This document shows positions 1-64,000 of a stretch of 64,000 bases of DNA, one piece after another. Each line of letters opens with the position of its first letter. Position 1 is the stretch's first letter. The notes under the pieces are model-generated. The model did not search any database. It saw only the letters and a program-made list of their open reading frames with translations, and was not told the DNA's origin. The stretch covers positions 124,001-188,000 of the forward strand of contig BCGN01000001.1 in the NCBI GenBank assembly GCA_001599295.1, read 5' to 3'. Source of the DNA: Sporopachydermia quercuum (Eukaryota). Both the position numbers and the translations under genes were made by a program.

Positions 1-726
1 AAGATCTATCGGGATATGTCCATCAGAAGANAGTACTATCGGATCATCGGATAATTGATAAGGAACGTTCAATGGGAGTTCTCGAACATCTCGATCGCTG
101 AGTAGATCAGTTGATGTTGATATATAAGCTTTTTGGGCATACAACGTTCTAGGGCTTTGAGTCAAATCAATATCTTGATCATCGGGTAAATTCGATTGAG
201 AATTTTCAGAGTTTGGCTCCGATGGTATATCCGGTAGCCGTATGGCGGCGGAAGGTTCATCCGACGTCAAGTGTAGTTGGGAGGTGGCCGTCGGAAGTTT
301 GATGTCCAGTTTCTCCTGTGTCAACGTATATTCTTTGTTCAATGAGATCGCCGAGTCGCAACGGATCACACCTCTCGAGTNCCCTGTTACCCCGAGTTCT
401 GAAATTCTCCCTTTTAGCATATCATTCTCCTGTATTAATCGTGAATTGAACTGTCGCACAGCCGATAGAGCTTCTTGCAGAGATTCCCATGTTTTCTCAT
501 GTCTAGCGTACAACTGAACCATTTCCTGTAATCTCCGCACTCTTTCTTCGGCCAATAGACATTTTGTAACAGCGGCAAGACTTTGGAATTCAGTGCTTTC
601 CATCATATCTCCCAGAATCACCGAGATCAATCTCTTGAAGTACGCGTTTTCCTCAGTCGCGGCTGAATTGAGATCCTTATTTAGAGTCACTTTCTCGGGA
701 ATTTTCTGGGATTGACACGTGCCCAT
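1..726 (-). CDS. Hypothetical protein, 5' part only (runs off the window start); N-terminal helical/coiled-coil region followed by a Ser/Pro/Asp-rich region
   Basis: Manual translation from ATG at 726 gives MGTCQSQKIPEKVTLNKDLNSAATEENAYFKRLISV...ERVRRLQEMVQLYARHEKTWESLQEALSAVRQFNSRLIQENDMLKGRISEL..., open for 242 codons to base 1 with no stop. It is absent from the ORF track because it is truncated. Confidence 0.7.
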   Translation of the reverse strand, partial: MGTCQSQKIPEKVTLNKDLNSAATEENAYFKRLISVILGDMMESTEFQSLAAVTKCLLAEERVRRLQEMVQLYARHEKTWESLQEALSAVRQFNSRLIQENDMLKGRISELGVTGXSRGVIRCDSAISLNKEYTLTQEKLDIKLPTATSQLHLTSDEPSAAIRLPDIPSEPNSENSQSNLPDDQDIDLTQSPRTLYAQKAYISTSTDLLSDRDVRELPLNVPYQLSDDPIVXSSDGHIPIDL

Positions 727-1602
727 TTTGATAGAACTTCAAACTACACGCTACTTAGTAAAACATCACGTTAAGGCGCAGAAAATCAGTTAAATTTTTA
801 TGGTATTTATGATAGCATAATGATTAGTCCAATATTCATCATGATTCAGTTTTCGGTTAGAAGTAAATAGAGGATCATATCGGATCTCACTACAGAGTTG
901 TTGGCATCGGAGTGATATTTTATGTGTCTGAATGTAATGGATTACATGATCAGTAAAGGACAAGTAAAAGGAAGAAAAAATGATGATCTATATAGACACA
1001 AAAATACCCTACAAGAAAATAATAGAGGATTGTATTGGTGTATTGGAGTTTAGTGGTAATTAAAATATTTGAATATGCTAAGATTAGGTGATATCCAGTT
1101 TTAAAGTGAGGGATCAATTCATTGGAGTATTTCAATGGCAAGTCGACATGAAGTTCGATTAATAGATTCACAGTCAAACAACTTTGGGTTTCACATCAAA
1201 ATTCTAATGATATATATGTACATTATTACCCAAGTTTTTACAGAACAATAGACGATATACTTACCATTTTGTCTAAAACTCCTTACCTTGTACCGATGAT
1301 TCTTTCGATACAAATAGATAGTTAATAAGCATCTTCATCCCTAACACATTTACTCTAAACCTAACAGAAAATATATGATCATATAATCACCAATCACAAA
1401 AATAGTAAGTAACGCGAAGGACATTCATTAATTATCTTCCAAATTACGCAAAGAAACAGATACCTCAACACATAATGAACTGATTATTACATAACACAAT
1501 ATTCTGTAATCCTATCCGTAAACCTAATACTAGTTTCCACAAAGAAGCAATCAGATCCCCAGAAACTCAGGACACGAACCTCTTTCCATTTCATACCCCG
1601 CA

Positions 1603-2523
1603 ATGCCAATCAATGATTACCTGGCAAAACACTACTTGAATGATGGCAAATCAAAGAAAAAGAAGCATTCTGACAATAACAAATTGGTGGTAGAAGATGA
1701 TCTGCTTGGCTGGGAAGACGATGATTTNATGACTCGTAACCCGAGGGGAAACAGAAGCGGAAGGAAAACGGAAGGGGGATTCAAGAGGATCGGCACATTG
1801 AAAGAGCATAGAAAAAAGCACAAAAGTGGGAAAAAAAAGAAGGATACCGGAAACGATGAAGGAATTGTTAGCGGTATTAACAGCGGAAGCGATATTGGAA
1901 TTTCGCGAGAGGTTTCGGAAGATTTTATCGGAGGTTTAATAACAGCAGAACAACTAGAAAAGCATACTCAACAGAAAGAAACGGAACAAGAACAGTCACA
2001 ATCACAATCACAGCTTAGCTCGGAACAATACACAGAACCCCGCCAAGAAACAATATATAGAGATGAATCTGGTCGCATTATAGACATAAAAGCCGCGGCC
2101 GAAGCTGCCGAGAGACAGGCCGAAATCGACAAATTAGAAGCTGAACGGGAACACAAACAGCTGCAACGTGGCGCACAACAAGAACATGAGGCCCTGCAAC
2201 GTCAACAGCTGCTGGAATCAATGAAAGCCACTCCTCTTTCAGTGTCAGCTAACGATCCGGCGCTTAACCGAGCCCTGCAAGCAGAGGTCCGAGGTGATGA
2301 CCCTGCATTATCTTTTATTACAACAAAACTACGCAAAGACGTTTCTGTGACTGGTAGAAGGCTGTATAAAGGTTCATATCCCCCGAATCGGTTCGACATT
2401 CGACCTGGATACCGATGGGACGGAGTTGACCGATCCAACGGTTTTGAGAAGAAGTATTTTGCTAGTATAGGTGCTAAAGCCGACCGGTCGCGGTTGGAGT
2501 ATGCATTAGAGTTGGATGAATAG
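1603..2523 (+). CDS. BUD13: Pre-mRNA splicing factor Bud13/Cwc26 (RES complex)
   Basis: 306 aa ORF with N-terminal DYLAKHYL, ETIYRDESGRIID and the C-terminal Bud13 signature PPNRFDIRPGYRWDGVDRSNGFEKKYF. Confidence 0.95.
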   Translation: MPINDYLAKHYLNDGKSKKKKHSDNNKLVVEDDLLGWEDDDXMTRNPRGNRSGRKTEGGFKRIGTLKEHRKKHKSGKKKKDTGNDEGIVSGINSGSDIGISREVSEDFIGGLITAEQLEKHTQQKETEQEQSQSQSQLSSEQYTEPRQETIYRDESGRIIDIKAAAEAAERQAEIDKLEAEREHKQLQRGAQQEHEALQRQQLLESMKATPLSVSANDPALNRALQAEVRGDDPALSFITTKLRKDVSVTGRRLYKGSYPPNRFDIRPGYRWDGVDRSNGFEKKYFASIGAKADRSRLEYALELDE

Positions 2524-4079
2524 AAGAAAACAGTGGGTGTGGGATAAATCAAAGTAAAGCTGGGTAATAACATGTTATTGAGGGCACTTACGACCAGGAA
2601 TATATACGTATGTTTATGGTTTTTTAGGAGAATCTTGAACTCGGCACAAGTAGAGAAGCAAGCCACAGAAACTCATTACTACTACATTGATGCCCACGCA
2701 AACAGGACTTTGATTGTGTTCAATTGTCTCACAGTTTTAGGGAATTAATCACGGAATCGCAGCATTTTACTATCTTCGGATTAAATACTTGGCAGGGTAG
2801 GCAAACCCAACAATTTTGCTACAGAGATAAAGGAAATAATGACAAACACGGAATTAACTAGGGAAAAATATCGGAATAGCCCATTCCGGTCATTCGGAAC
2901 CACATACACAATAGGAGAGATTGATCATTAGAGAAACCTAAATTCAATCAGACATGTTACAAAAATTTACTTCTAAATGCATGGACTGGTGATAAATGTA
3001 CAGACAAGAATTACTCATTACTTAGTGTAAGAGCTACAAATCGAAGTAATAATTACTGCAACTATCAATCAAATATTTCACTTATGACTATAATTTCTTA
3101 GAGAATATCTCAGTTCATCTTCATCTCCTTCCAGCAAACCTTCATTTTTTTTTTTCATCAGCAACCGGTTGCTATCACTAGAACCATAATTATAGTTAAC
3201 AGGGGTAGTAACCTACATGACGTTACCAAGCGAAACATTCTAGATACACCTGAAAGTGTTGATCTTATTATGATAAGCTTACTTATATAATACAGGTAAT
3301 AAAACCTATATTACGAACCAAAGCACAGTCTATTTGATGACAGATGTAAGTATAAAATAGAATAGAAGCAGAACCAGCACTATTGCGTTAGCGTGCAATA
3401 TACTCATTGTACAGCCTTGTATATCAATGTATGAATGATGCCAAGGTGCAGCACAATGCCCACCGTTTCCTGTTAGAACAAATTTACTTGCAGTAGGATT
3501 CTTGACACGTACTTTTAGGTCAATATAATTACCAAAAATTAATTTGATTCAAAAGCTAAATATCTCAGAATGAAATAAACAAAGTAGACATTAATTCTAC
3601 CGGTGAATGAGAGTTACGTTACAAAGCAATAATTGNCTTCAATTATTGTACGTCCCTGGGATTTTGACTTTTGGAATGATTTTTGTAACAATAATTACAA
3701 NATTAATTCAATATATGGTGTGGCAACTGGACAAAAATAATGATAATACAAAAAAACATTATTATCACAATTCTTAAGTAATTGTTGCATAAATTACTAC
3801 ATGAATTAATTATGGAAGCAAAAATTCGTTTATATATACACTGAGTAGAAATGAATAATACACGTTATTTACAACAGTCAGACAAAAATGATGCTGTGGA
3901 AATAATTAGAATAACATAGATAAAAAAAAAAGAATAACATAAAATCAACCATGGTGAAATGAAGCATAGAGTTGAGACAAGCTTCATCTCAGGAAGTAAA
4001 AAATAGTTGAAAAGTGGTACAGATTTCCAGCATTCTCCCTTGAGCAATCCACAATACCATATTGTGTGATTTTACCTAC

Positions 4080-7000
4080 TTATTTCCCCTTCTGCTCATC
4101 TTTGCTTGCTAGTGGCTTAGCACCTTTAAGCAAATCCATTATTTGCTTAGCTTCCTCCTTTTTAACATGAGGCACAGTAACAGGTGCCGCAGGNGCCTCA
4201 GGAGCTATATGAGACAAATGAGGCATTGAGGACTGACCTAAGGCACCAGGAGGCCCAATAGGGAATGGTGGCTGCATGGGGTATCCGTAAGGACCTGGTG
4301 GTGGCGCAGCTATCATACCAGGTGGAGGATGACCGTAAAAGCCACCTGGAAATGGAACAGGCATTAGCAGCTGAGGACCGTTTTGGGGCTGTTGTTGTGG
4401 CTTAGGGACCACATTAGAGTTTCCCGCTTGCTGTTTAGATTTCAATAAATTTAGTAAATCTTTCTTTGCTGCATCTCCATTTGAATTTTCACTGTTTCCA
4501 TTCTTGGCCTGTTTCTCTCGTTTAGGATCCTTAGCCTTGCTTCCTTTGATCAAATTGAGTAGATCCTCCTTAGCTTTCTGAGGTGGAACAGCAGGGTTTC
4601 TATCGTGAGCATTAGGTTTCGCTAATTTAGCCACGTTAGGCTCATTCTTAGACGTTTGACTGTAGGATCGTTCAATGGGTACACTAGTTTGATTAATCTC
4701 GACTGATTTGGCTCCTTTTTCTTCCTGTTTTGGTGTTTTACCACCAGGTTTAACTGCTTTCATCGATTTGACGGCCTTAGGAGGACTGGGTTTGGCTATT
4801 CCTGCGACAGACTTTTCCTTTTGTTCCTTACTACCCTTTTTGGAAGCACCAATTTCCTGCTTAGAACCATTAGCCTTGGACTTATGCTTATTCTCAGCTT
4901 TAGCTGCACTACGAAGTTTTCCATCATCCACACCTAAGCTTTGTTTTAAAGACGTCAACAAATCATCCGTTTTCCAAGCATTTGTAGCCGGAGGAGCAGC
5001 AGCCACAATTCCTCGTTGTTCCTTACGATTTCCGCTATGGTTTCTGCTGTGACTTCCGTTATGGTTTCCCGTTCGGCTTCCTGAATATTCGGATCGAATA
5101 TCCCGTACATGTCTTCCGCTTTTCTCCTCACGTGCTTTCGACGCAGCTGAATGATATACCAATTGTTTGTATGACAAATTAAGTAACATAGCCGAGTCTA
5201 AAGTAAGTCCTCTTTTAGTCTGTAGTTTATTTCCCAACGTGGATCCGCTTATTAACTCCGAGTCAAAGATAACATCTAAAAACGCTCGTGGGCCGACGAG
5301 TTTAACTGCAGCAACTATGCCTCTGGAAAACACGGGCACCAACCCCGACATTTGCACATAGGCCACTCTATCTCCAATCCGGAATTTCTGTTTACCGAGT
5401 GACCAAAGGGACAAAGTAGGGTTTAAAACTGCTTGGAGTGGAACCTTATTTATAACTTCAGATTTAGGTTTTGGCACGTTTCGGATATACTGCTGTAAAT
5501 AAGCTTCAATCGCAGCATAACTCGGACCGGAGAAAGCTTCCGAGTCTAAACTAACTTTCTCATACTCCGATTCTTTGAAAGCTTTAAGAAACTTTTTAGC
5601 TTCCGAAATCTCGCGATCCCGCGCCTTGTCATCCAGATTAGGCATCAGTTCTCTACTATCGGGTAAACTGGAATTAGTGGTCCGGATTCCTTGGACCAAA
5701 GACGGAAACAGTTCCGTATATTTCCGAATCAGTTCAATGGCTTTACCACTATAAAACCACCCACGGTCACCCTTACGGGAATACCCGAGAACTTTCTGCT
5801 GCCGGCCTTGAAATTTTATCTCCAATCCTAAAGAAACTTTAGAATTATTATGCACAATCATGTATGATGCTGTAAGTTTGGATAAGGTTAATGGAGTCAA
5901 CTTTAAAAGCCGAGCCACCTCCGTAGCCGGGAAATATCGATTAGTGTTCTCTTCCCAAGCAAGTCTTGCTTTGCCAATTCCGGGAGAAACCTTCTCGGGG
6001 TAAATTTCCACTTTTAGGTTCAAACTTTCCGATTCCTCGCTTCCAGTGGCGGATTCCTTTTCGAGGTTGTATCCGATAACTTCTGCTTCCGAACCATAAG
6101 CCATTGCACCCAAAAATACTACCTGGGATTCCGTAGGGAACTCTTCCTGAATAGGAATTGCTTCCTTTTCGGTGAATCTTTGATCTTTGTTGATTACATC
6201 ATCGACAATCAATTGAACTGGGTACAGTTCCGATTCATCCCGATATTGTTTTCTGTACGCACCTGAGTTTTCCCGATTTACTCCTTCTAATAGTAAAACT
6301 TCCACTAACACCTCAACTCGGCCAATCTGCACTGCTTTTGTCTTCTGGTAACTATTCTGGAGACCTTTAGCCTGGGCATTAAAGTTCACCCGTTCCGTCT
6401 CCGTCATCGGAACATTAATGGTTCGAGTTTTCCCGTGAAGTGACTCGACATAATGCTTTAGCAACCCATCTTGCACACTAACAACTTTCCCTTCAATTAA
6501 AAACGGCCAGTTAATGTATACAACAGAGCCGGAATACTTAACAGCTATTTCCGAAGGCGCCATCTTTTCAGACTGGGATATCGTCAAAACCACCGATTCC
6601 GATGCGGCGGGCCGACTAAATACAATTGTTCCGTTATTTTCTATCGATGCGGAGAAGTCTAATGTGTCGAAGGTGGGAAATCCCGGGAGCATTTCTCTTC
6701 CGGTGAAGCTGCCCGGTAATAATCCGTAGCGAAATTCTCCGTTTTTAGGTTCTGGAAGGGTGAATCTTATTTCAGAGCATCGGCAAACTTCCAAATCGGG
6801 GAAATTACCGGTCGATGGTGATAAATAGCCTGAAACTCTACTAGGATTGAACTCAAAAGCAATAGCCTCACTTAATTCGTTCCGACTCCGTTCCTCTTGG
6901 CTTATTTTCTCTATTCGGGTTTCCATTGCCGCAAGAAGGCGAACTTCGTCCACAAATGGAATAAGCACAACAGCCTCCCATTCATTCTTTTTCCCGTTAT

Positions 7001-9270
7001 AGTCCAATTCTACCGTATTTGGATAAAAATCAATAATAGGTGAGTCCTTATCGGTCATAAGGTTTCGGAATGGCTCAGGAAGCAAAAATCTGGACCGAGC
7101 GGGTAAAACAGCCATCAACTGCTCAAAAGGTCGGAAGGGAACATCTGAAGGGAATTCAGAGGTAAACTTTAATCCGTGCATTAAATCACTAACTCTAGGA
7201 GCATAATGATACGGGTAGTACCATGACCAAGAAGGGCAACCCCGGTAATAATAGTACAAAACCCATTGGACACCTTGAAGGTAAGCCGAGGTTATGTTTG
7301 TGAGTTCCCCAGTGTTGTTAATATCGAAGTGAAGTTTCTTTCTATAATAATTTTGTTTCCAAGATAAGAATTTGGTGTCATAGGCTTTCTTCTTTTCGGA
7401 AAGCTCATCCTTTGTGGCCACTGTGGCTTTAACATATTTCCTAATTTCGTTTCTAGCCGCTTTTACTTTCCCGTATGGGGTAATCTCATCATCTGATTCA
7501 GAAGATAACTCAACATTTAGCTCCGAATCAGGCAAAAACGGATCAAATATCACGTCATATTGTTTTTTCGCTATATTGTGTACAACCGTTAAGCCTAATT
7601 TAGCTGCTAAAAGTTGCAAAAAGGGTAGTTCATTTCCGAGCTCGCTTTCCGCAATTGCAATAGTTGCCGCTATAGTATCGGAATTTGATTCGTGGAATTC
7701 CACATTATTTCCGCTTTCCGACTCAGATTCTGACTCAGACTCAGACTCCACTTCCGCAATCTTTTCCGTTTGCCTACTCCGTGTTCCACTTTTCTTTCCT
7801 TTACTTACTACCGCATCAGGTTCGATTCCCACTTCTGCTTCTGCTTCCGCTTTTGCTGCTTCCGACATTCTTCCTTGAACTCGGGCTACCAAACTATTCA
7901 CCTTACCAACAAGCCGCTTCTGCTCCGGAAGCAATAAAACTCGCCCTTTTGCCTCAAATTGCTCCCGCGCTTGCTCGCTCATCCAACCAAGTTCCTTATT
8001 AAACCATTCTAAATCAATAGCTCCTTGTTCAAATAGACGAACTTCATAATTCTGCAACTCCGTTAACCATAGAACTAAGCTATCTCGGTTGATATCTCCA
8101 TTTTCGTTCAAATACGTTTTACATTTCCGAAGAGTTTGCTTCAATGAATCAAACAAAATCGGGAACGCTCCGTTATTGATCACTAGGTCGGGTAGATTCG
8201 GGAGGAAATCGTTTCCTACCATCATAGCCACCAGGATAAAATCATCAATGATCCGTTCTAAATCAAACCGGAAGTCAATCACGTCTTCTAAATCTTGGAA
8301 TTCTAGACGGAGGTATTCCCGAACTAAGGAGATATGAAGTAATTGGAACGGCTGATCGGCAAGATTCGAGTACTGTTTCCTGGTTCTTCCGAAAGTGACT
8401 TCTTCTCGGAGTAAAGCAAAATGCGGCTCATGGCATAACAGACCGAGCATGATTAAATCAGCGTCTAATCCGTAAAGACAATGTCGGACATTTGGAAGAT
8501 AACTCGGTTCTGATTTCATATTTCGGATATATTGCATGATTTTATGTTCACCTTCTCCGGGAACCTCAGGACCGGAAAGGATAATTTCACATGTCTGCCA
8601 ATCTGAATCCTCGGTAACTTTTTTATTGATGAAATATTGCAAATGACTTGATAACTTAGCCATAAATTCGGTACCAGGAGTAATAGTATTGGTATCAAAT
8701 GGATCCTCTTTGGGTAATTCTTCTCCGCTTTCTAAAGCTTTAAGCCGAAGTTTCTCGGCATTAAATGCCGAAAGAAACCTGCGAGCCCGCTGTTGATTCA
8801 TCTTTGCTCTCGGAGCAACTCCGTCAATGGCCATGTAAAATACCTTCTTTGGTCTCACTAAAGAGAATAAATGATCAATATAGGAGAAGATATCGGAGAA
8901 CATTTGTTCTTCCGACTTTCGGTTGAAAGTATCATCATCCGTATGAGTACAATTATGAATAATTGAGTTCATGTCCAGGTACAAGTTATCGAATTCTATG
9001 GGGAAATGAATTCCTTGTAGGTTTTGATTAATCTCGGGCCATCTTTCCGAGATGAACCGGTAGAATTTTGGGATTCCTGGAGGAAATGTTAGAAAGAAAA
9101 AGGGGAAATGAGGGGAAATGAGTCGAGATATCGGANAAAAAAATTGGATAGAACAGTACAGGAATTTAATGTACTAGACAATATTTGAGTTTGAGAATTG
9201 TTTGTTTCAATATCATTTCCAAATCGATGACTTCTTTTTCAATAAACTTGATTAAATACTACTTACCCAT
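4080..9270 (-). CDS. XRN1: 5'-3' exoribonuclease Xrn1; exons 9267-9270 and 4080-9076, intron 9077-9266
   Basis: Splicing ATGG|GTAAGT...TTCTAAC...CCAG|GAATC restores the canonical start MGIPKFYRFISERWP. Motifs YLDMNSIIH, AIDGVAPRAKMNQQRARRF, PGEGEHKIM, YGLDADLIML and GNDFLP are present. The length and the C-terminal domains fit Xrn1 rather than Rat1. Confidence 0.97.
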
Positions 9271-10744
9271 TATAGCCTCACTTTATCAATCCGTTAAGTT
9301 CCGTCTCGTATAGCGTCGGTTGTTTTCTGTTCTGCAAATTAAGCCGATTCCTCTATTATATCTTCCGGTGTCTTTTCCGCTATCTTATCCGTAATATTTT
9401 CCGCAGTATCTTCGGCAATCACTTCCGCTTCCTAACACAACTTCCTATCTCTCAATGCCCAGCTACTATTGTGTACAATTCTATAAATCCACACACTCTC
9501 ATCAATTGAATTCCCTCTTTGATGTATTAATCAATTAGATCAATTAAATTGAGTAAATTATCTTTTAATGAAAAAAAATCAAGCTCAAGCAGGAGAAATA
9601 ATAAAACAATTTTATTCTTATACGCTTGTTCTTCCTGCGATTTCCATTTGATACGTTTACTATACCTTCCAATAAGCCAGTTGGTAACACCATTGCCATA
9701 GTGAAATGACGCGTTATGGTGGGAATTATCTANTGCTGATATTTACGGAGGGGAGAAGGCATGCGTAAATGTGGGAATGCGATGAAGGGTCATATGAAGA
9801 TCTACGGGTAGGGAATCAAATAACCGGATAATCGGATATTATTGAAAAATAGTGATCCAGATAATGGGTTGGTTATGTATCAAGAATGCTAAATAGTGGT
9901 AGAGATGCTTTGTTTTGTTAGAGCACTAATCCTTTTTTTTTAGTCCTAGTTGATCTTATTATTAGTTATTGAGATACTCCTAAAATCCATACCATAATTT
10001 GAATATATTTCACTATATACTGCGAACTCTGTTTGTATTCGTAATTCAATACAATTGATCAAGTTGGTGGATAACACAAGTATGAAGGCGACAGACAATG
10101 AAATCCAGTAAACCGGGTAGAATGATAGCAACCCACTTTTGATCAATCCTACCCGGAAGGTTCTCACGCAAAAAATTCTGTGTAACAGCTTTCCTGTACA
10201 AACCCCAAACTCCACGCGGAAACATCACATTCGCACGCCGGAATCTGTTTCAGCACATAGAATCCTGTACCAGACATTCTTCTTCCTGTCTACACAGGTC
10301 TATTTCCCCGTTTGCCATCTCCAACTCTATATTCCAGGACGGACTGTTTACATGAATGTTTTTATTACTGGTGTTCACTTCTCATAAACAACAAACCTGT
10401 AAGCCATTCATTAATTNACCATATTTTTGATAAAAGCAAAACTTTAATTTATCGCTTCAAACTGGCTGGAAAGAAATTATTTATTTGGAACGTTGATTGA
10501 TGTTTTGTTGTGAATTAATCATAGCGTGTGCATTGCTTGTAACTGTCTTTGAATACTATTCTACAGATCAAGTTTCACTGATCAAGCGCACAGAACACTA
10601 GGAGAAGTAATCTGAAACTCGACAGAAAGGAGATATATTCCCTGTTTGCAGACCTTTTGTATAAGAAGGAATTTTAGTGCTCAAGTACGCCATTTTACCT
10701 CCAAGGGTAAATCTCATTTGTTGCGATTGATGATCTAGCAGAAG

Positions 10745-12361: not shown

Positions 12362-12454
12362 TAAAGAAATTTCAAAGAATAGAAAGAAGTGGAAAGCAGA
12401 CTGTGTTAATATTGTTTGTATAATAGTTTTATTATTTATTGCATTAATAAATTC

Positions 12455-50359: not shown

Positions 50360-50750
50360 CTTAACAATGTGGCTTCTTTTCTCTGATGGGTTCTGAATGC
50401 TATACTATACAAGTAGTTACTAATTAACAGCTTGAATTCNTAACTGAATATCTGAAAGAGCCACTTTTTCACTATTACAAACCCAGTCTGTTTTTCGCCA
50501 AATTCCTGTTAGAAAAATCACGCCCTTTCTTTAATTTTCCTTTGCGTTTATGCATATTCGTTTACTATTTCTTTTCTCTGGATCGTTTGATAAATTTTCA
50601 GTGGCAGATAGAAAATGAAACTTTTCGGGTTACAAATTGAATAGGTTACCCGGAGATGTAAACTAATTAATTGATTACGCTATATATTAGTTTTGAGGGA
50701 GAAGTTGAGAGATAGAGAGAAAAATGCTATAAATATAGCGCCCGACTTAT

Positions 50751-50760
50751 ATCACGTGAT
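50751..50760. promoter_or_regulatory. Palindromic E-box ATCACGTGAT (Cbf1-type bHLH site) about 400 bp upstream of TIF35
   Basis: Exact RTCACGTG match in a divergent intergenic region. Sequence match only. Confidence 0.3.
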
Positions 50761-54623: not shown

Positions 54624-54995
54624 TGTAAACGGATGGTTTTGGGATTTCCATTCTCGGATCCAACTTTGAGTGAGCAGGCGGAAGCGGCGGCTGGAGCTGA
54701 AGGAAGTTGAGCAATTAGTTGGTAAAGGCAATGCGAGCGAGACCGCGAGCTGCATAGGAATCGGAATTAGGAAGAGTTTTGTTCAACTAATGAGGTTGCG
54801 AGATATAGTTTAGCCATATAGAAAGGAAATAATTACTGATTACGGGTAAGCTAATAAATCAACTTAGTACGAATAGATTAACTAGTAGAACTAAAATTTT
54901 ATTGCAGTTAGATTATATTTCCTGATTAGGAAAAAGTCCGCCTTACCCCAATTTGATCAATCAGCTTCCTAAGGAAGCAAACACTCGAAAAATCA

Positions 54996-57170
54996 TCATC
55001 TGGCCTCACTTTCCATTTCGGACCATATCCAACTGCGCCACAAATCTCCCGCTTGAGAGATTATCGTATGGATATCTCTTTGTGGTGAAGACACAAAAAC
55101 AGGAACTTCTTCCTTTTCCAGCGATTGTAACGATTCAGCTGAACCAAAAACAGAATTGGTACTACTGCTGCCTGAAGAGGTAATAGACCCGGTTCCTAAC
55201 TGATAATTATCGCTAGTATTGAAGTTGAAATTACCGTTTCCTTCTGATGCTAAATTTGGACTCCGATAAGCTTCATCTTCCCCGATCTCAGATCTTCCTT
55301 TGTAGTAATGATGATTAGCTCGGGTATTCTTCCTTAATGGCCTTCCTTTCCCATTTACTGAGCTCATTCCGGAACTACCCGATTGCTGCGAACCTAGTTT
55401 TGATCCGTTTTCGGAGGAGCTCTGCTTTATATAACCTTTTTTACTCTCCCAGGAAATAGTTCGGGATAAATATTCCCGAATTTCACTTTGGTCTAGTTCC
55501 ATTAAGGTTAATTCCTTAGCTTTCAGCATAGCTAAGCACACAAATATATGCTCCGTATGAACATCCGCCCCCGGAGGAAGATTTAAAGTTCCGGTTGTAG
55601 TTTGGGAAGCGGGATTAATTATTTTTGGACCCGTCTCTGATGTTAAGTCATAATTGAGCACCGGCTTCTCCCGAGAGTAAATTCCATCACAGATTGTAAC
55701 AACTGAATCTCGGACTCGGGCCGAGTTTAAGCTTCCCGTCGACCAAAACGGATCGGAACCTATTCCGGCTTTTTGGTCTAGAGTTAATTCTAACACAGAA
55801 CAAGTTTTGACCGGCAAACTCCGCATTTTACTTTTTCTAGAAGAACTAGTACTAGGATTGATACTGTTACGGTTGCTAGCATTAGAATTTCCGTTTTGAG
55901 AATCGGAGTTAAAGCTGGTTTTTGAGGTTTCTGCCTCTTTCCCGTTATCGTTTCCGGTATCATTTCCGTTATTAAATCTAACTTCTGCTTCTTCTTCCGA
56001 AATAACCCGAACCAACGGAACCTTATCTCGCCATCCGAAATACATGTCCCATACCCGACCACGGTCCCGCTTGTCCCACACTTTTGACCCTGCCCATTTG
56101 ATCCACCAATGAAGCCATTTCTCTTCTTCAACGGCGCTTAAAACATTCTCTTCGTAAAAGTAATTAGAAAGATCGGGTAACAAGGTTTGGAAGGCATACA
56201 AAAAGAATGACACAATATCTGATCCGAGATTAGTTACGTGTGAGATTTTGGGAGAAGAATCGGCGTTCGAATTGATGTTGCCTCTATTATTTTTATCTCC
56301 CGTGCTATCATTTCCGAAATTATTGATGATGTTTCCGCTAACTAAAATATCGTTTCCGTTTTCCCCATTGTCAGAATTCCCGTTTCCGGCCCCATGCAAC
56401 TCAGGAACAACTTCCGCTACTAAATCTTCTTCAGAATGTAACAAAACAAGCAATAAACGTTCATAAACTTCATGAAATTTCATGTCAGGCCGATAATTCT
56501 GAAAAAATTCAAAATCAATATTGGAATCAGTCTGTAGATTCCTGTAGTTATCTTCCAGTAATACTCCTTTCCATCCCGAAAGTATCCAGTTTGTTTTATA
56601 AATAGGCGGAATCCATTCCGCTAATGCCATGGCTGCCCAAGTCATTCCTGGATCATACGGAACCAATGGACCCCATTTATTAAGAAACCGGGTAATTGCT
56701 TCTTCTATGCATGTGAAAAAAGTATCTGCTGTATCAACTAATTCTGAATCTTCTCCAGGAGGAGGTAATCTTTTCCGAATTCTGGAAATGTCGGTTCGGA
56801 TTTGTTTTATCGGAACAAGCTCAAACTCTTCTGAGTTTTCATTCCGAGATAGCTTCGAGGTTTTATTCAAGATTTCTTCTTCTGGGATTGGCATAATCAT
56901 CGGATCTAATACATTCGGATGATCTATGAGCAACAAAGGCCACGCAAACTGCCGAAGCGAGGAAGGGATACCTTTGTGGCGAGCCAACATGGCTAATCCC
57001 GTTGTGTTACGTTGTCGAATGTAATATTGGCATAATCGCACGATTATTTCGGAGTTGGGTCCAATGAACTCTGATGAAACAACAGAAAATGTTCCGCTCA
57101 AAGCTAAGGATAAGTTGGTACTGGAAGCGGATGCTGACGAAGCGCTTGAGGAACATGAAAGCGCGTCCAT
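54996..57170 (-). CDS. OCA5: Oca5 (TBC/Rab-GAP-like fold protein)
   Basis: GLAMLARHKGIPSSLRQFAWPLLL..HP, FLNKWG...YDPGMTW..MALAEW, WLHWWIKWAGSKVW...DRGRVWDMYFGWR, HIFVCLAMLK...LMELDQSEI and IISQAGDLWRSW. Confidence 0.85.
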   Translation of the reverse strand: MDALSCSSSASSASASSTNLSLALSGTFSVVSSEFIGPNSEIIVRLCQYYIRQRNTTGLAMLARHKGIPSSLRQFAWPLLLIDHPNVLDPMIMPIPEEEILNKTSKLSRNENSEEFELVPIKQIRTDISRIRKRLPPPGEDSELVDTADTFFTCIEEAITRFLNKWGPLVPYDPGMTWAAMALAEWIPPIYKTNWILSGWKGVLLEDNYRNLQTDSNIDFEFFQNYRPDMKFHEVYERLLLVLLHSEEDLVAEVVPELHGAGNGNSDNGENGNDILVSGNIINNFGNDSTGDKNNRGNINSNADSSPKISHVTNLGSDIVSFFLYAFQTLLPDLSNYFYEENVLSAVEEEKWLHWWIKWAGSKVWDKRDRGRVWDMYFGWRDKVPLVRVISEEEAEVRFNNGNDTGNDNGKEAETSKTSFNSDSQNGNSNASNRNSINPSTSSSRKSKMRSLPVKTCSVLELTLDQKAGIGSDPFWSTGSLNSARVRDSVVTICDGIYSREKPVLNYDLTSETGPKIINPASQTTTGTLNLPPGADVHTEHIFVCLAMLKAKELTLMELDQSEIREYLSRTISWESKKGYIKQSSSENGSKLGSQQSGSSGMSSVNGKGRPLRKNTRANHHYYKGRSEIGEDEAYRSPNLASEGNGNFNFNTSDNYQLGTGSITSSGSSSTNSVFGSAESLQSLEKEEVPVFVSSPQRDIHTIISQAGDLWRSWIWSEMESEAR

Positions 57171-58839
57171 TATGAAAGTCTATATGGTGATGAAATACTA
57201 CAGGAGATATTTATGTTCGTGTGTCGATGCTTGTATGCTGATAGGATACACTGTTTATGGTTGTAGTTTTCTTTTTCTTGCTTCNGTTCCGTTTCTTTTT
57301 ACCGTGGAGTTCGGAATTACTAAAAAAAAGTTCTGCCAATAAACAAGGTTTAGATTCAGACTCAGAACAAATTCAAACAAATTCTCGGTTGGTTTTCCGC
57401 TTCCGTTATGTGAATGTGAAATCACAAACTGTCAGAAGGCATCTTCGAAAAATTAAAACAGACGATAGACAAAATGATACAAAGAATATGTGTGCAAAGG
57501 GTAAACAAATGAGCTTTACCGAGATTTGAACTTCTGAATTTTAGCTGTTATTGCCGAGCTTTTCAAATTCGTGTCGTTTATTTCTTCCGTTACTGAGAAG
57601 AACACATCCACTGATGTTGTAATTGCTGGAAACACAAGTAGGGGGAACTTTGGCTCGNAGTATATCCTACTTCTGACCGCTTTGAGTTTCGTATTTTCCT
57701 TTTGAAGAAACCTTTTGAGAAAATGATCTGCTTTCCACTTCCGAAGTCTTCTTTCTGATAGTTTTGTATCATATAATAGGAAATAAGAGAAAAATAGAGA
57801 AGAAAATGTGTGTAGAGCAAAGTCGTTTGTGAAAGAAAAAACGCTGGGGGTCTATTAGGGTCTTTGTCCTGGTTAGATACTTTGTTTAAGGTTTAGCTAT
57901 GACATTGTAATAGTTGAAGGGTCTAGTTAAATGGAGATAATGGAACGTAAGCTTTTGGGATAAATAAGAAGCCTGAAGGTCTCTNCTTTTGCAAATACAA
58001 GATAAAGAAATGTCTAATTCTATTCAAAAAATTTAAAGCTCTTATAGATAGTTTTAACCAATTGCTAAAGNTTGAGTTATGTATATATGAATGCTGTAAA
58101 ATTAAGTGTTAACTGAGTTTGTGCATGTCACACTGAAGACTAGGGCTTGTCCTGCATAACTATGGACAAAGACAATAACTTTCTTGTAAGCTTACCCGAA
58201 AGAGACACAGAGAAGACGTTTCAGTGAAGACCAAGAATAGAATAGCTTGGCCAAAGAGGTTGAAGCAAAGTGATGGAAACAGGAAACTTGTAGATGTTAC
58301 TTGACTACTTTTCAATTAGATCTCTTACATTAGTCATTTCCTTTTACATTCAAACAAGCTTCGACCTAACTATTTCCTCCTTAGAATGATACTCCTGTTT
58401 AAAGAGGCACAAACTATGTCCTTTGTTCTAGTTACAGCATAAAAAAGCAGACAGGAAAGACCCACTAAAACGTGATAGAATCCCATATGCTACAATTCCC
58501 AATCGGGATTAGTTTCAATTACGGAAAACATACTATATATCTGTCATCAGGATTTCCGAAATTNCCCATATCCATCCATATTTCACCCCCTATTTTGAGA
58601 CACAGAAATTTTTTTTTAAGCATCTTCCTATTATCACGATTACCATTCTCTAGAATTGGCCATAGATTAATATTGAATGTATACGAACCAATAGCTTAAA
58701 TCAGTCTCAATTCCAGTTTATATTGTCACAACCTCTTTGNCTACCCTGACAATATTTAATTGGCTCCAATAATTATACAATACTCTCTCTTATTGTCATC
58801 TCTTTCAAATAGCATAACTATCACAGGACTATCTGTGCA

Positions 58840-59997
58840 ATGTCTGAGTCTGAAGAATCCTCCAAATCTTCTTCAAAATCTGAGAAAATTTCCTCTAAAC
58901 GGGATTTAGAAGAAATCGAAATTGATTTAGAAGAACCAACGCCTCTTTCAAAGAAGCAGAAGCGTTTAGAAAAGAAGAAAGCTAAAAAAAGCTCCTCAGG
59001 AAACGATACAAGCAGTTCAAATGAACAATCAAACGAACAATCAAACAAAGAATTGAAGCCTCAGAAGGCACAAGAATCTTCAAAATCCAAAAGTGAAAAT
59101 GGTATTTGGATTGGAAATCTCTCATATGATACTCAGAAAGATGATATTATCCGTTATTTGGTTGCTAAGACTGCACCTTATCCAGTTTATAACAATGATG
59201 ATCCNATCGGAGAAGATAACCTTTATAAGATCACCGAGTCAGATATAACTCGGGCATTTCTTCCATCAGGAAAGAATAAGAAAAGCATAAAAGGGTTTGC
59301 TTATGTTGACTTTTCAGGACCACAGTTTTTACAATCAGCTATTAGTTTATCTGAGAGTAATCTGAACGGAAGAAATCTACTCATCAAGAATGCTAGTTCA
59401 TTTGAGGGAAGACCGGCAAAGCCTGTTGGAGATAATAGTAATTCAAATCCNCCATCTCGAATCCTTTTCGTAGGAAACCTATCATTTGATACTACGGAAG
59501 ATCAACTTGTTATGCATTTCCAATCATACGGTGAGATAGTTAAAGTAAGAATGGCTACATTTCAAGATTCAGGAAAATGTAAAGGTTTTAGTTTTATTGA
59601 CTTTTTAGAAATTGATTCAGCCACAGCAGCATTAAAGGATAAATCGTGTTATCGCATGAACGGGCGAAAGTTACGAATGGAATATGGAGAAGATAGAAGT
59701 AAGCGAAATCCTAAGATGTTAGCCAAAGCCATAGAAAACGGAAATGATGATGGGGATGTCACCCATGAAGCCGAAGAAGTTAGCACTACTAATAGTAAAA
59801 GCTATTATGAAGGTGGATTCGATAGTGAGAATAAGGGAAATCACAACGCCAATACAAATGTTTCATCAGAGAAAACGAAGAAGAAGAAGAAGAGTATGCG
59901 AGAGAAGCCGAAAATCGCGCCCGGTGCCGCTTTGGCAAAAGCAGCCAGGGGAAAAGTCGGAATTGTGGAGTCTACGGGTACTAAAATTACCTTTTAA
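58840..59997 (+). CDS. NOP13: Nucleolar two-RRM protein Nop13
   Basis: EIEIDLEEPTPLSKKQKR, GIWIGNLSYDT, KGFAYVDF, LNGRNLLIKNASSFEGRP, PSRILFVGNLSFDTT, VRMATFQDSGKCKGF and C-terminal GTKITF. Confidence 0.93.
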   Translation: MSESEESSKSSSKSEKISSKRDLEEIEIDLEEPTPLSKKQKRLEKKKAKKSSSGNDTSSSNEQSNEQSNKELKPQKAQESSKSKSENGIWIGNLSYDTQKDDIIRYLVAKTAPYPVYNNDDXIGEDNLYKITESDITRAFLPSGKNKKSIKGFAYVDFSGPQFLQSAISLSESNLNGRNLLIKNASSFEGRPAKPVGDNSNSNXPSRILFVGNLSFDTTEDQLVMHFQSYGEIVKVRMATFQDSGKCKGFSFIDFLEIDSATAALKDKSCYRMNGRKLRMEYGEDRSKRNPKMLAKAIENGNDDGDVTHEAEEVSTTNSKSYYEGGFDSENKGNHNANTNVSSEKTKKKKKSMREKPKIAPGAALAKAARGKVGIVESTGTKITF

Positions 59998-60885
59998 GCA
60001 AGACAACTATGCAAGCGATACATATTGTGGGTATTGATCAAATTTCTTTAAGTAACTAACGGAAGTTGCTGCCTCAATTTGGAAATGCATAAGCAGAAAG
60101 TACGAGTATCNTGAGAAAATCAGGTAATAAAGTTGCCAATCCTGGCATTTAACTTCTGGCTCATGTACAGTAGGTGATAGGTTAATTTGCATATATTTAA
60201 CTAAGGAAACGGATTTTGGTGAAAGGTCGCCGGATACAAAATAACTGTCCTGGTTAAACTACGTCAAATTAGGCAAACTTCCTGGTAAGTCAATTACTTT
60301 GGCGCAATATTTCAACGAGGTTTCCCTTAACATTTTGGTTATAAACTTGGTCGTATAAATACTTTCTTCTCTCCTTCCCGACTACCGTATTACTATTTTA
60401 TACGGAAAATTGAACATTTACACAGCTGCTCATTACCTGTGTAATCGCGTGTAACTGTCTTTTTGTTCCGACGGAGATCAACCGAGGAATTCAGTATACC
60501 ATTCCCCTGTTGTTGCCATCCCTGTCTTATTCTTACCACTGCAGCATACAAATATCAGATCTGGCAAAGATCACTAATAGTCTAATAGTTGAAACAACTC
60601 AATTACAGACAGCTCTTTCTATATTTCTTAATTGATCATTTATTCCGTTGTCCCAATTCTGGCAAGTTTTGCACTTGTATAATGTTTTACTCACAACAAC
60701 AGGAACCATTTGTAGCATTAGAATAGCTATCATATTTAGAGTACAGGAAATAGAAATACGAAAAAAATTTGTCACTATTGAATTGAAAACACTACGCTTG
60801 ACTCATTATTATGTCATTATCGTCACTCTTATATTATATATGAATTTATTTTCTCCGGTTTTAATATATCATCTCCAAAATATTT

Positions 60886-60922
60886 TCACGTGATATAACT
60901 TTCAATTTCTGTAGATCACGTG
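60886..60922. promoter_or_regulatory. Pair of TCACGTG E-boxes about 400 bp upstream of the ENTH gene
   Basis: TCACGTGA at 60886 and TCACGTG at 60916. Sequence match only. Confidence 0.3.
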
Positions 60923-61309
60923 CTCTTGGATTCTTAATTCGTATCCTTCATATTATAAAAACGCATGGATATCCCTACCAAATCGGGAAAGTTACAAAGA
61001 AATCATACAGTTCTTCATCAGAGGCCGAACTTCACATTTACCCTTACTTGTTCGGTCTTTTTCGGCTTCATTTCAACCTAAATTTAAATCTTTCGGAGCA
61101 CCTTACAAATTCCATCTTTGTACACTGAATCGAAACAAGGTCACATTACTGATAATTGGTAGCATAACCATCAGATCATCCCATCACTGATCATTGTACG
61201 TCTCGGCTTCAGATAAGATCAGCTCGTCAAAACGCAGGGTTACTCTGTAATTGAGCCGAGGGCGGAACAAACTGAACAGAAAGTCAATAAAACATTATAA
61301 CGGGAAAAG

Positions 61310-62656
61310 ATGACCACAAAAAAGGTCATCCGACAGATAAAGAACATAACAAACGGGTACTCCAGCACGGAGATAAAAGTGCGCAATTGTATGTTTGATA
61401 TTCTGAGAACCGGAGGAAAGTCAAGGGATTGAATGGAAGAATTCGGAACAACTCTGAAAGGTTTTCGAAGTCCTGGAATTATTCATAGATTGCTAACCTT
61501 TTATTTTAGCTACAAGCAATGATCCGTGGGGTCCTTCGATGGATGAATTGAATGAGATTTCGCAGCTAACCTTTGACAGGTGAGTGAGATAACTAGAATA
61601 CCGGAAACGATAGCAGGTTTGATTTGGAAATGATAAGGATAAGGAATGAGGTAGTAAAAGAGAAGTTTGAAGTACCGGGACATGATTGTGAAATCAGAAT
61701 CGGAGAGAGAGATAATAGCGGAATGGGTTGCACTGTAATTACCAGTCAGCTAGGCGACTCCAAACCGCTCTTGAACAATACCTTCTTCTAACTTTCATAC
61801 CCTGTTTTCTCCGAAATTTACCCCAAAACTAACCCCTCCTGCTCCTACCCCTCTTTTTGCTGCAACTTTATTTCTAACCTTATTTTCTAGCCGGAAACTA
61901 TCCGATGTTACCAAAATCCTTCTGAAAAGACTAAACTCCAACGGTAAAGACTGGAGACATGTAAATAAAGCACTAGCTATAATCAAGTTTTGTGTTATTG
62001 CTGCTTCCGAGAACTTCTTGAAATGGATAGAATCCCGAGCTTATTTAGTAAAAAGCTTATCGGAGTTCAAATTCATCGACTGTAACGGTATAGATCAAGG
62101 AATAAATATACGGCAGAAAGCATTAGATATCTGTGTGCTACTATCGAATGAAGAGGCGCTAGAGAACAAACGGGTAGAATTTCACAAGCTGCGGTCACGG
62201 ATGTCTAAACCAGGAATTCTAGAGTCTGCTCGGAAAACTCCGGGTAGAAATAGTATAGATGTGGCAGGATGTAAACGGATAAGAATGGGAATGGCAGATA
62301 TAATATCGGAAGAAAACGGAGACTCGGAAGAAGATGAGTTGTATCAGGCGTTAGGAAGTTCTCCGTTAATGGCAAATCCAGAAATGCTTACATCCGATCG
62401 GCTTAATGAGGTGGTTTTGCCGGTTAATTTGGATTGGGATGCGTTAGCTCGCAGTAAATCGGGAAGTTCTCGGTACAAAAATAAGGGCAAGAATCGGAAT
62501 ACTGTAGATTCAGTAATATCTCCGGCTTATTCCCGGGCTACTCCCTGGGCGGGAAGAATGACTTCGGCTTCATTGGATATTCCTCGGGATCAATTCACCC
62601 GAAGCTTTAATTTATCAGAAAACCCGATCTCTGAATCGGAAGAACGCAGGTTGTAG
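61310..62656 (+). CDS. ENTH-domain protein (Ent4-like); exons 61310-61388, 61510-61579 and 61891-62656
   Basis: Two introns (GTATGT..TGCTAAC..TAG and GTGAGT..TTCTAAC..TAG) give MTTKKVIRQIKNITNGYSSTEIKVRN-STSNDPWGPSMDELNEISQLTFD-SRKL...KRLNSNGKDWRHVNKAL...DQGINIRQKA. No UIM or NPF motifs, so Ent4-like rather than Ent1/2. Confidence 0.88.
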
Positions 62657-63194
62657 AATAGTTTGGGCGGAAAGAGAAGAAACATGGATAACTCTAGAGG
62701 AAAGACCGGAAAAAGTAGCGGAACATCGGGTTGAATTACGGCGCTAATATATAGAAATTAAGAAGAATCTTCAGAAGCTCGAAGTATTGCTTTTCCGGAA
62801 ATGGGGTTGCATAATAAATGAGTAATTATGGCACAAAAGCATATTATGAAGTATAAGCTAAAGATTTGCAATTAAATTAGGTAATTGTATCCAAATTCAG
62901 TAGTCAATTTAGTTATATTCCTCAAAATGAAACAAGTTTTTGCTTATTTGAAGCATTTCATTTACTTTGGATCATACTTTCCGTCCTTACTCGAAATTAG
63001 ATACGAAAATCACCTTATTTGAAATCATTTACTTTCTAGTCAACCAAAATTATCCTAGTTCAGCAATTCTACTAGTTCTCTTCTTCCTGAAACGATAAAA
63101 TATCTCAATTTGTTTGCCTCTTTCAGCAGAATATGAACAAACATGATTAGCTTTATATACATAACTTACTCCTCTTTTCAACTTTCGACTTTAC

Positions 63195-64000
63195 TTACTC
63201 CACCACATCCAACCCGACGATCTCCTCAAACAACTCGGCACAAGGGACATTAGCATTCATTCGTGCACACAATAAAAATGATCCCGAGAATTTCCGGTGT
63301 AAACTATACGTCTCCTCTGGTGGAGGGGTTAACCGTTGCTGTAACATAACACCGATATTAGCCCGAACCCTATTGGTTATATCCTGATTACTGAAATCAA
63401 ACCCTTTCCCGCGGTTCTCCTTACTGAAGGGTTCACCTAGTACAAGCATGGAATCCACATGAGCATCCTTCATAGTTTCCGTTTCCATTCCAGTGAGATA
63501 TCCGAGTTTTAACGAGTACTTTTCACATAAGACTCTATCCTGTTTTACTGCGGCTCGGAGACAGTTTAGGTAATTGTGAATAAACTTCTCCGAGAATTCT
63601 CGAGCAGATCCGAAGTCCAAAAGCTCGATCTTACCCGTTTTCTCATTATACAAGAAATTTGCCCAATTCGGATCAGTTTGCATAAACTTGAATTTAGCTA
63701 TTTCAAGCAAACAAAGTCTCATTATATTTGTGGCAATCCAATTCTTTGTGGCTTGGTTCCAATCTCCTTTCACAATCTCAGTTCCTTCCATTTTCTCCAT
63801 GGTAAGCACGTTACTACCCGATAAATCATGAANCACTTGAGGAACCACAAATACTTCGTCCCGAGATTCCAAAAGTAAGTTTCGGAACCTTTCAAGATTT
63901 TGTGCTTCTCGGATATAATCACATTCCCATTTCAGTTCCATCCGGGCGTTATCTACCGATTGTCGGAGAAACAGCCCATCAGGGAGCATCCGAGAAGCAG
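63195..64000 (-). CDS. COQ8: ABC1/UbiB atypical kinase Coq8, 3' part (start lies beyond the window)
   Basis: LPDGLFL...[39 protein letters not shown] and [18 protein letters not shown]. Confidence 0.95.

Follow-up and report, generated by a model that had tools for sequence, protein, structure and literature searches.

A two-state mosaic of CCG/CGG-rich and CCG/CGG-poor DNA in a 64-kb yeast window, with state borders inside genes

Regional differences in base composition are usually ascribed to GC-biased gene conversion, to methylation-driven decay of CpG or to foreign ancestry. In Saccharomyces, tracts of GC-biased gene conversion and local peaks of GC3 (the G+C content of third codon positions) are of kilobase scale; they fix AT-to-GC changes regardless of coding and raise G+C generally. 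The GC-rich left arm of chromosome C of Lachancea kluyveri, about 1 Mb long and shifted in overall GC by more than 10 points, has reportedly been read as an introgression. Vertebrate CpG islands keep a CpG observed/expected ratio (o/e) near 1 in a CpG-depleted background, and in enterobacteria very-short-patch repair (Vsr/Dcm), which is methylase-linked and genome-wide, corrects T:G to C:G with a preference for context, thereby over-represents the corrected word and alters oligonucleotide frequencies throughout the genome. Here we describe a mosaic in a stretch of 64,000 nucleotides of Sporopachydermia quercuum (assembly GCA_001599295.1, contig BCGN01000001.1, positions 124,001 to 188,000; the whole stretch is called the window, and all positions below refer to it). 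Along this DNA, tracts rich and tracts poor in the trinucleotide pair CCG/CGG alternate, and some of their borders lie inside genes.

Physically clustered sets of higher-GC3 and lower-GC3 genes that translational selection does not explain have been reported for 49 budding yeasts, with biased gene conversion, introgression and context-dependent mutation discussed as causes (PMC9246145). By its main text, that study scores whole genes by their codon frequencies, and in that text "CGG" does not occur and "CpG" occurs once. We rate the present mosaic as a form of intragenomic compositional heterogeneity, here confined to one trinucleotide pair. The initial annotation of the window, made from its letters alone, knew of no earlier description of CCG/CGG-specific domains in yeasts, and a search of the full-text literature, with subscription-only papers outside its scope, turned up none.

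Segmentation, sequence specificity and borders

Words were scored as CCG plus CGG over the whole window, 939 in all. A two-state Poisson hidden Markov model (HMM) on 100-bp bins converged at means of 0.68 and 3.55 words per 100 bp and divides the window into ten rich segments (17.6 kb, 624 words, about 35 per kb) and nine poor ones (46.4 kb, 315 words, about 6.8 per kb), with densities of 25-43 and 1.7-8.3 per kb, respectively, from segment to segment (Table 1). The largest poor segment runs unbroken for 37.4 kb. Poisson mixtures fitted to 200-, 300- and 500-bp bins yield two components, at 6-8 and 32-35 per kb. The second component improves the Bayesian information criterion by 300-380 units (from 1151 to 771 with 500-bp bins), and a third brings no clear gain (with 200- and 500-bp bins it is worse by 5.8 and 2.6 units, with 300-bp bins better by 4.7). 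The histogram of 500-bp counts is bimodal by eye, and the same contrast runs along the full window in a 1-kb CCG/CGG profile and a 2-kb GC profile. Measured against each segment's own base composition, o/e is 1.33-2.17 in all ten rich segments and 0.12-0.98 in all nine poor ones; the pooled values are 1.92 and 0.64, and the enrichment is about five-fold (log2 2.3).

The mosaic had first been proposed from four hand counts, and these prove exact: CCG/CGG context accounts for 15 of 18 CpGs at 5521-5820 and 15 of 16 at 55501-55800, and for one of two CpGs each at 17821-18120 and 27781-28080. The excess noted in non-coding DNA holds as well (10 of 12 CpGs at 9290-9430, 6 of 8 at 62660-62800), and the scarcity described for about 12.5-48.6 kb corresponds to an HMM poor domain of 11.6-49.0 kb. 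The claim that most of 49-64 kb is rich stands in part, as DNA at 50.3-51.9, 57.6-59.9, 60.5-61.0 and 62.8-63.2 kb is poor. The mosaic is real, and it is stronger than first described.

What sets the rich DNA apart is a single trinucleotide with its complement. Conditioned on dinucleotide content (Markov-1), CGG has an o/e of 1.65 in the rich and 1.06 in the poor state; CGA, CGT, CGC, ACG, TCG and GCG stand at 0.71-0.86 in rich DNA, and CGG and the other CpG words alike at 0.93-1.06 in poor DNA. The profile does not become flat after correction for local base and dinucleotide composition, and the excess in rich DNA persists. The next most enriched words, CGC, CGA and CCC, are about two-fold more frequent in rich than in poor DNA, mostly through overlap with CCG/CGG. 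Raw GC does climb, from 34.9% in poor to 41.9% in rich DNA, but with CCG/CGG masked it is nearly equal in the two states (36.5% rich and 36.2% poor in coding DNA, 33.6% and 31.4% in non-coding DNA). The seven-point rise therefore consists essentially of the CCG/CGG words themselves, which bears out the early impression that there is no general rise in GC. In coding DNA, CpGs outside CGG number 14.3 per kb in the rich and 12.8 in the poor state. A residual shift exists at codons without a synonymous route to CCG/CGG (2561 of 3732 rich and 4546 of 5710 poor codons): their GC3 is 35.7% in rich and 30.5% in poor genes, with more NCC and NNC codons in the former (chi-square 65.7, 33 degrees of freedom, p=6e-4).

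Several familiar sources of such words fail on these data. A tract of GC-biased gene conversion in its general form is contradicted by the equal masked GC of coding DNA and by unmoved shares of AAG, GAG, CAG and TTG, only the small residue remaining. A CpG island would spare CpG in every context, and here CGG alone is high. Triplet repeats of the (CGG)n type do not account for the words: Tandem Repeats Finder reports six short arrays, none of CGG type, adjacent CGGCGG is rare (three occurrences), and no dispersed repeats of at least 40 bp were found within the window. Mutation of the kind caused by repeat-induced point mutation (RIP), which turns C to T in duplicated DNA and leaves AT-rich, CpA-poor tracts, is rejected because the anomaly is a gain of CpG and duplicated segments are absent from the window.

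Every rich gene carries the excess in each of its three codon frames, and it extends to both introns of the ENTH-domain gene, to the 1137-nt intron of TIF35 and to 5' and 3' flanks; non-coding DNA holds 25 words per kb in the rich against 6.1 in the poor state. Over 3749 rich and 5745 poor codons, CGG takes 0.28 against 0.04 of arginine codons and CCG 0.28 against 0.07 of proline codons; NCC and NCG codons are about doubled in rich genes, and the use of Lys, Glu, Gln, Leu and Phe codons is unaltered. Synonymous sites follow their neighbouring bases. Before GG, the third codon base is C in 37% and T in 18% of 234 codons in rich genes, against 9% and 49% of 337 codons in poor genes, with A at 28-30% in both; before other contexts the share of C barely shifts (0.16 rich, 0.14 poor). 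In NCN codons followed by G, the third base shifts from T and A to C and G (G 0.29 against 0.09, C 0.26 against 0.05, rich against poor). The contrast between the states is one of AT/GC transitions, namely those that create or destroy a CpG with C or G at its flank. Translational codon bias is rejected, in line with the initial judgement that codon selection explains little, since the excess is confined neither to coding DNA nor to one frame and depends on adjacent bases at synonymous sites. A deaminase specific to one transcription strand is rejected too: the sense strand carries both complementary classes of transition, A-to-G and T-to-C, at synonymous sites, and its CGG and CCG words number 347 and 252 (58:42), an imbalance that parallels purine richness. 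Among scored genes, the eight with more than 23 words per kb have a GC3 of 0.37-0.44, ten genes of the large poor domain one of 0.24-0.34 and the RRM-protein gene one of 0.30; these classes are contiguous along the window, as in the physically clustered mutational gene sets of Cope and Shah.

As a baseline for composition we used 44 metagenomic XRN-bearing eukaryotic loci from an XRN1 scan, none of them close (best-segment identity at most 59%). Their o/e of CCG plus CGG spans 0.17-1.35; rich DNA, at 1.9, lies above all of them, and the excess is therefore a gain in rich DNA and not a loss in poor DNA. Poor DNA resembles the baseline loci in composition and shows a mild, uniform depletion, with an o/e of 0.51-0.65 for every CpG word and 0.64 for CCG/CGG. 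Furthermore, the ratio of C to T before GG is 2:1 in rich genes and about 0.5 at non-CpG sites, so that a positive push toward CGG is required, beyond the mere absence of CpG decay.

Borders between the states are abrupt, with gaps between sites falling from 200-400 to 10-50 bp within 200 bp. In XRN1, amino acids 1-1335 are encoded by rich DNA and the tail by poor DNA (6.8 per kb), and the border lies near nt 4967 in non-conserved sequence; the lineage-specific, non-conserved residues 1285-1334 at this border carry 60 words per kb. Within the rich part, lineage-specific inserts hold 52.9 words per kb (20 in 378 nt) and conserved columns 38.9. In a comparison with XRN1 orthologues, CGG overlaps conserved residues (65 of 387) and derived residues (15 of 100) alike, so that the direction of change is not indicated. 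In TIF35, the intron and the first 200 nt or so of exon 2 are rich, and the DNA is poor from about 49.0 kb, inside the eIF3g Pfam domain; the RRM half of the gene is conserved yet poor. The FG-nucleoporin gene is in turn poor, rich and intermediate along its length. The switches within XRN1 and TIF35 that the initial annotation had suspected are thus confirmed, and the nucleoporin gene adds a third. An equation of rich with conserved or old sequence and of poor with young sequence is rejected by the rich XRN1 inserts and the poor TIF35 RRM half. Since the state switches within genes and conservation is irrelevant to it, position, and not conservation or gene identity, sets the state.

Do the borders ignore gene boundaries, as was first proposed? 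They do so inside XRN1, TIF35 and the nucleoporin gene. Across the flanks of the large poor domain, however, poor gaps favour intergenic DNA: the share in the rich state is 85% for coding DNA but 27% (left) and 50% (right) for non-coding DNA (5000 circular shifts, null 0.66 ± 0.07, p=0.008). Several borders fall close to one end of a transcription unit: that by TIF35 exon 1 is within some 100 bp of it, and others come 150-400 bp past the ends of several coding sequences (CDSs). All 12 open reading frames (ORFs) of at least 150 amino acids that lie wholly within the 37-kb domain are poor, including an antisense ORF inside a 931-aa ORF and the ORF of TIF35 exon 2.

The sites share a weak flank consensus, T/C-CGG-A-A, with CGGAA enriched 9.5-fold, TCGGA 7.6-fold and every flank variant at least 1.9-fold. 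CpG-to-CpG distances of 10-13 bp are preferred (103 pairs against 49 expected from 6-nt block shuffles; for nearest-neighbour gaps, 93 against 41.6 ± 6.3), a separation of about one helical turn. The ratio is 1.52 in coding and 1.6 in non-coding DNA, control words give 0.95-1.26, and poor DNA shows no such preference (6 against 8.0 expected). In the pair-distance counts the peak at 10-13 bp stands out alone, with no clear higher harmonics and no clear long-range, nucleosome-like periodicity. The preference is common to all pair orientations at their baseline shares, which argues against a dimeric transcription-factor site of fixed geometry. Upstream of XRN1, six TCCG/TCGG words at intervals of 11-13 bp form an array at 9363-9430, about 90-160 nt before the start codon and with CGGA on the XRN1 sense strand. 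The array is absent from the Tandem Repeats Finder output and may serve as an element of the promoter or the 5' untranslated region.

Taken as a description, a gain of CCG/CGG that is trinucleotide-specific, position-dependent, two-state and nearly strand-symmetric, that runs through TpG/CpA-to-CpG transitions next to C or G and that has one-turn spacing is secure. Codon selection, amino-acid content, general GC-biased conversion, CpG-island sparing, triplet repeats and RIP-like mutation are excluded as its source.

Origin of the rich and poor tracts

What could load one trinucleotide pair onto some tracts and spare their neighbours? We rank first, tentatively and at somewhat less than an even chance, a composite in which a CGG-favouring process keeps to gene bodies, the large-scale borders being places where DNA of exposed ancestry meets DNA of unexposed ancestry. 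The rich patches would be ordinary DNA of the source genome with some 28 extra CCG/CGG words per kb, loaded by a DNA-level, nearly strand-symmetric bias that fixes AT-to-GC transitions (TGG to CGG, CAG to CGG, and their complements). The force may be a fixation bias that arises in mismatch correction or gene conversion, one option being T:G-to-C:G repair with a flank preference, perhaps on nucleosomal gene-body DNA, and it would largely follow transcription units. The borders near 11.6 kb (nucleoporin gene) and 49.0 kb (TIF35), and perhaps that in XRN1, would be recombination junctions of tracts with differing histories, and the window a mosaic of DNA from a bias-exposed and a non-exposed lineage, either of which could be the incomer. 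Abrupt borders within single transcription units and in non-conserved sequence, with neither a gradient nor an intermediate class, are most simply understood as such junctions.

A number of points weigh against this composite. Ancestry would only shift the origin of the CGG excess to a donor lineage. CCG/CGG aside, the states are nearly identical in composition, where a foreign lineage might differ more (the small GC3 residue exists), and one tract of 37.4 kb next to tracts of 0.3-5.7 kb makes for no simple distribution of tract lengths. A rich gene and a poor gene are equally distant from known fungi: the best named relatives of XRN1 are budding yeasts at about 49% identity, and those of AGX1, with Pezizomycotina among them, are at 45-50%. 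In the flanks the rich state goes with coding DNA and transcription units, which a chromatin-linked process acting in place would explain at least as well. With regard to the bias itself, the modest sense-strand excess of CGG makes strand symmetry imperfect, and the spacing ratios of GGC (1.52) and GCG (1.65) match that of CGG, although the counts are small and these words often overlap CGG.

The ambiguous bases also give the composite no help. The window contains 85 isolated N sites, single or double (about 1.3 per kb), which probably stand for ambiguity codes where a position was heterozygous or its base uncertain. Rich DNA has 0.68 of them per kb, against 1.50 for the large poor domain and 1.89 for the small poor patches (p=0.005 and 0.009). 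The roughly two-fold deficit in rich DNA persists when coding DNA (7 sites in 12.85 kb rich against 24 in 21.2 kb poor, p=0.096) and non-coding DNA (5 sites in 4.75 kb rich, 49 in 25.2 kb poor, p=0.26) are taken separately, but it is then not significant. Nor do the N sites, taken as possible signs of an ongoing process, fall preferentially on potential CGG positions (13 of 87, against a background of 0.146).

The source resembles a yeast lineage that is isolated and either deep-branching or fast-evolving, and neither the rich nor the poor genes look like a recent import from a known clade. Introns show GTAAGT or GTATGT and TACTAAC signals. An exact protein look-up found none of eight ORF products on record, a weak blank as the references carried the stop codon.

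The next reading in rank dispenses with foreign ancestry. The same bias would be active today in certain chromatin, recombination or replication domains, acting on gene-body DNA, and the 37-kb domain would be "cold". We regard this as possible, though less likely than not. The tie to transcription units (p=0.008), taken together with an identical background composition, is more simply explained by such an in-place, chromatin-linked process, and the borders close to TIF35 exon 1 and shortly past several CDS ends point the same way. A spacing of 10-13 bp would suit a process that scans wrapped DNA along one face, and the richness of fast-evolving neutral DNA, namely the TIF35 intron and the lineage-specific XRN1 inserts, suits an ongoing force. 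The poor domain contains a transposase remnant and less coding DNA, and clustered gene sets with differing non-adaptive nucleotide biases have been reported for many budding yeasts (PMC9246145). An in-place process accounts less readily for step-like borders in the middle of transcription units (TIF35 exon 2, the non-conserved XRN1 stretch, the nucleoporin gene) and for the presence of only two states with no gradient from any centre. Moreover, every scored gene of the poor domain is poor, housekeeping types such as YAE1 and the HIG1/RCF1-type gene included, so that transcription alone is not the determinant.

A functional reading, in which CGG half-sites (T/C-CGG-A-A) are selected for a double-strand DNA-binding protein that coats gene bodies, is unlikely. 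Fungal zinc-cluster factors read CGG triplets, and a reader of that type would be a candidate; the flank preference, the spacing and the six-word array directly upstream of the XRN1 start would all be in keeping with it. Yet with every flank variant enriched the motif would have to be very degenerate, pair orientation is random, and a load of some 550 sites in 17.6 kb, which favours neither conserved nor non-conserved codons, lies far above known regulatory densities. Selection for a coat protein is thus less likely than fixation bias as the force.

The initial annotation had also raised modification-driven loss, and this was not borne out. A CGG-rich ancestor whose poor domains lost CCG/CGG through cytosine modification and deamination would explain why the states differ at synonymous sites by C/T and G/A only, which are deamination transitions, and the CpG o/e of 0.55-0.64 in poor DNA. 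It is nevertheless very improbable: CCG in poor DNA (0.64) is depleted no more than ACG, CGC and CGA (0.51-0.65) and has a Markov-1 o/e of 1.06, poor DNA is like other eukaryotic loci and rich DNA above all 44 of them, and the 2:1 ratio of C to T before GG in rich genes calls for a positive push.

A by-product of gene content, that is, of codon or amino-acid usage, expression level or local GC, could draw on the higher GC3 of rich genes and on their arginine content (6.2% against 4.2%), but it is negated almost entirely by an excess that spans three frames, introns and flanks, survives base and dinucleotide correction, depends on the first bases of the next codon at synonymous sites and switches within single genes. 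Scarcely any weight attaches either to a chimeric assembly or a contamination joining two organisms, for all that two-state composition with sharp borders might suggest it, as ORFs and a Pfam domain continue across borders and Logan contigs from two runs in two studies (56 and 236 kb), which may be from a single strain and may contain the data underlying the window, each cover 51853-64000 (12.1 kb) with no differences.

Genes and other features of the window

Table 1. Segments and genes of the 64-kb window. State and density refer to CCG/CGG words; plus and minus denote the coding strand.
Position	Strand	State	Words per kb	o/e	Content
1-700		rich	32.9	1.52	covers a 3'-open ORF, 1-726 (-), no Pfam match
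701-1700		poor	6.0		divergent intergenic DNA and first ~100 nt of BUD13
1701-2900		rich			BUD13 CDS and ~380 nt of 3' flank
1603-2523	+				BUD13 CDS (Pfam Bud13)
2901-4900		poor			convergent intergenic DNA and final ~890 nt of XRN1 (disordered tail, aa >1335)
4901-9500		rich	38.5		XRN1 aa 1-1335 and XRN1 5' flank
9267-9270, 4080-9076	-				XRN1 exons 1 and 2; intron 9077-9266
9501-11000		mostly poor			intergenic, with short rich patch 10101-10400; includes first 250 nt of FG-nucleoporin gene
11001-11600		rich	43		within FG-nucleoporin gene; left large-scale border
10745-12361	+				FG-nucleoporin gene
11.6-12.4 kb		intermediate	about 14
11601-49000		poor	6.9	0.64	poor domain, 37.4 kb; genes C2H2, Metallophos_2, AGX1, 2OG oxygenase, YAE1, Asp protease, TPT, AKR; small elements: HIG1/RCF1-type ORF, transposase remnant
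14181-14639	-				Harbinger-type DDE_Tnp_4 remnant
29898-30311	-				HIG1/RCF1-type gene (Pfam HIG_1_N)
49001-50300		rich	25		first ~200 nt of TIF35 exon 2 and nearly the whole intron; right large-scale border at about 49.0 kb
50346-50359	-				TIF35 exon 1 (14 nt); intron 49209-50345
50301-51900		poor			intergenic
51901-57600		rich	35.8		WD40 gene, 372-bp convergent spacer, 724-aa ORF, both 5' flanks
52320-54623	+	rich			WD40 gene
54996-57170	-				724-aa ORF, no Pfam match; provisionally OCA5 in the initial annotation
57601-59900		poor to intermediate			intergenic DNA and most of RRM-protein gene
58840-59997	+		16 (gene-wide)		RRM-protein gene
59901-60500		rich			RRM gene 3' end and 3' flank
60501-61000		poor			intergenic
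61001-62800		rich	37.8		ENTH-domain gene, 5' flank through 3' flank
~61310 (ATG)-62656 (stop)	+				ENTH-domain gene; introns ~61385-61510 and ~61582-61890, inferred from splice motifs; CGG words in both
62801-63200		poor			convergent intergenic
63201-64000		rich			ABC1-kinase gene
63195-window end	-				ABC1-kinase gene

The XRN1 and TIF35 models in Table 1 were read from splice motifs, those of TIF35 being GTAAGT, TACTAAC and AG. The XRN1 intron directly follows ATGG, and the spliced product begins MGIPKF.

The PIF/Harbinger-type transposase remnant (Pfam DDE_Tnp_4, E=3.5e-8) perhaps extends to about 15394; stops and Ns interrupt it, and the ORFs beside it have no Pfam matches. Within 29818-30311, the HIG1/RCF1-type gene is overlapped by an antisense ORF of 163 amino acids on the plus strand, which is probably spurious. 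A small ORF at 20931-21359 (-) has a weak CHCH/Cx9C match (E=2.5e-4, under the Pfam cut-off) and may belong to an intron-containing gene for a protein of the mitochondrial intermembrane space. Besides the 724-aa ORF, two long ORFs have no Pfam match, at 16609-19464 (951 aa) and 35554-38349 (931 aa). Rfam, tRNA and repeat scans of the window found nothing that accounts for the patches.

With respect to sequencing runs, no second copy at 80% likeness or above was found in the Logan contigs of those examined. No RNA run is among those listed as sharing sequence with the window. One run, which belongs to a study that also produced one of the covering runs but carries the label of another organism, holds two contigs of 273 and 251 bp at a depth of 2-3 that match window positions 52671-53168 with 0 and 1 differences, respectively, plus a 43-bp fragment, and shares 7% of words; the two contigs look like carry-over between libraries and not like a relative. 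A further run matched the window by a single 35-bp fragment; gaps in the cover by these last two runs carry no information.

Comparison with described systems and implications

How does the mosaic relate to described compositional systems? It shares with the gene-conversion tracts of Saccharomyces a local, kilobase-scale fixation of AT-to-GC changes irrespective of coding, and departs from them in that masked GC is level (36.5% against 36.2%) and G-ending codons for Lys, Glu, Gln and Leu are static. Like vertebrate CpG islands, the rich patches are islands in a depleted background; unlike them, they leave ACG, CGT, GCG and CGC low (Markov-1 0.71-0.77) and cover gene bodies instead of centring on promoters. 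The Lachancea kluyveri arm is likewise a compositionally distinct tract within an otherwise homogeneous yeast genome, whereas the window holds many patches of 0.3-5.7 kb whose shift is carried by one trinucleotide. The clustered GC3 gene sets resemble it in that composition classes cluster within one genome without an explanation by selection; the window differs in that one trinucleotide pair is concerned, that introns and flanks take part, that borders are intragenic and that sites are spaced by 10-13 bp (PMC9246145).

A contrast that lies almost wholly in a single trinucleotide pair is an unusually clean read-out of context-specific substitution or repair. If the process acts in place, the patches would mark a domain structure of recombination, chromatin or repair in a little-studied yeast lineage and would offer a natural system in which to measure context-dependent fixation bias. 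If the tracts instead reflect ancestry, CCG/CGG density would be a marker that paints introgressed tracts at a resolution of about 200 bp without a donor reference. Either way, studies of codon usage or selection would go astray in the source organism if they took its genome to have a single mutational background.

The footprints of Vsr/Dcm repair in bacteria are alike in kind, as a context-specific correction of T:G to C:G is one option for the force at work in the window; those footprints are bacterial and genome-wide with a known methylase, and the window is patchy. We speculate, as a possibility short of a probability, that a budding yeast may harbour a trinucleotide-specific drive, a bias of mismatch correction or gene conversion, that turns TpG/CpA into CpG only where C or G flanks it, on gene bodies, with a phasing of about one helical turn and in sharply bounded domains. 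Such a drive would be a eukaryotic, domain-restricted counterpart of the footprints of bacterial very-short-patch repair or of uptake-sequence drive.

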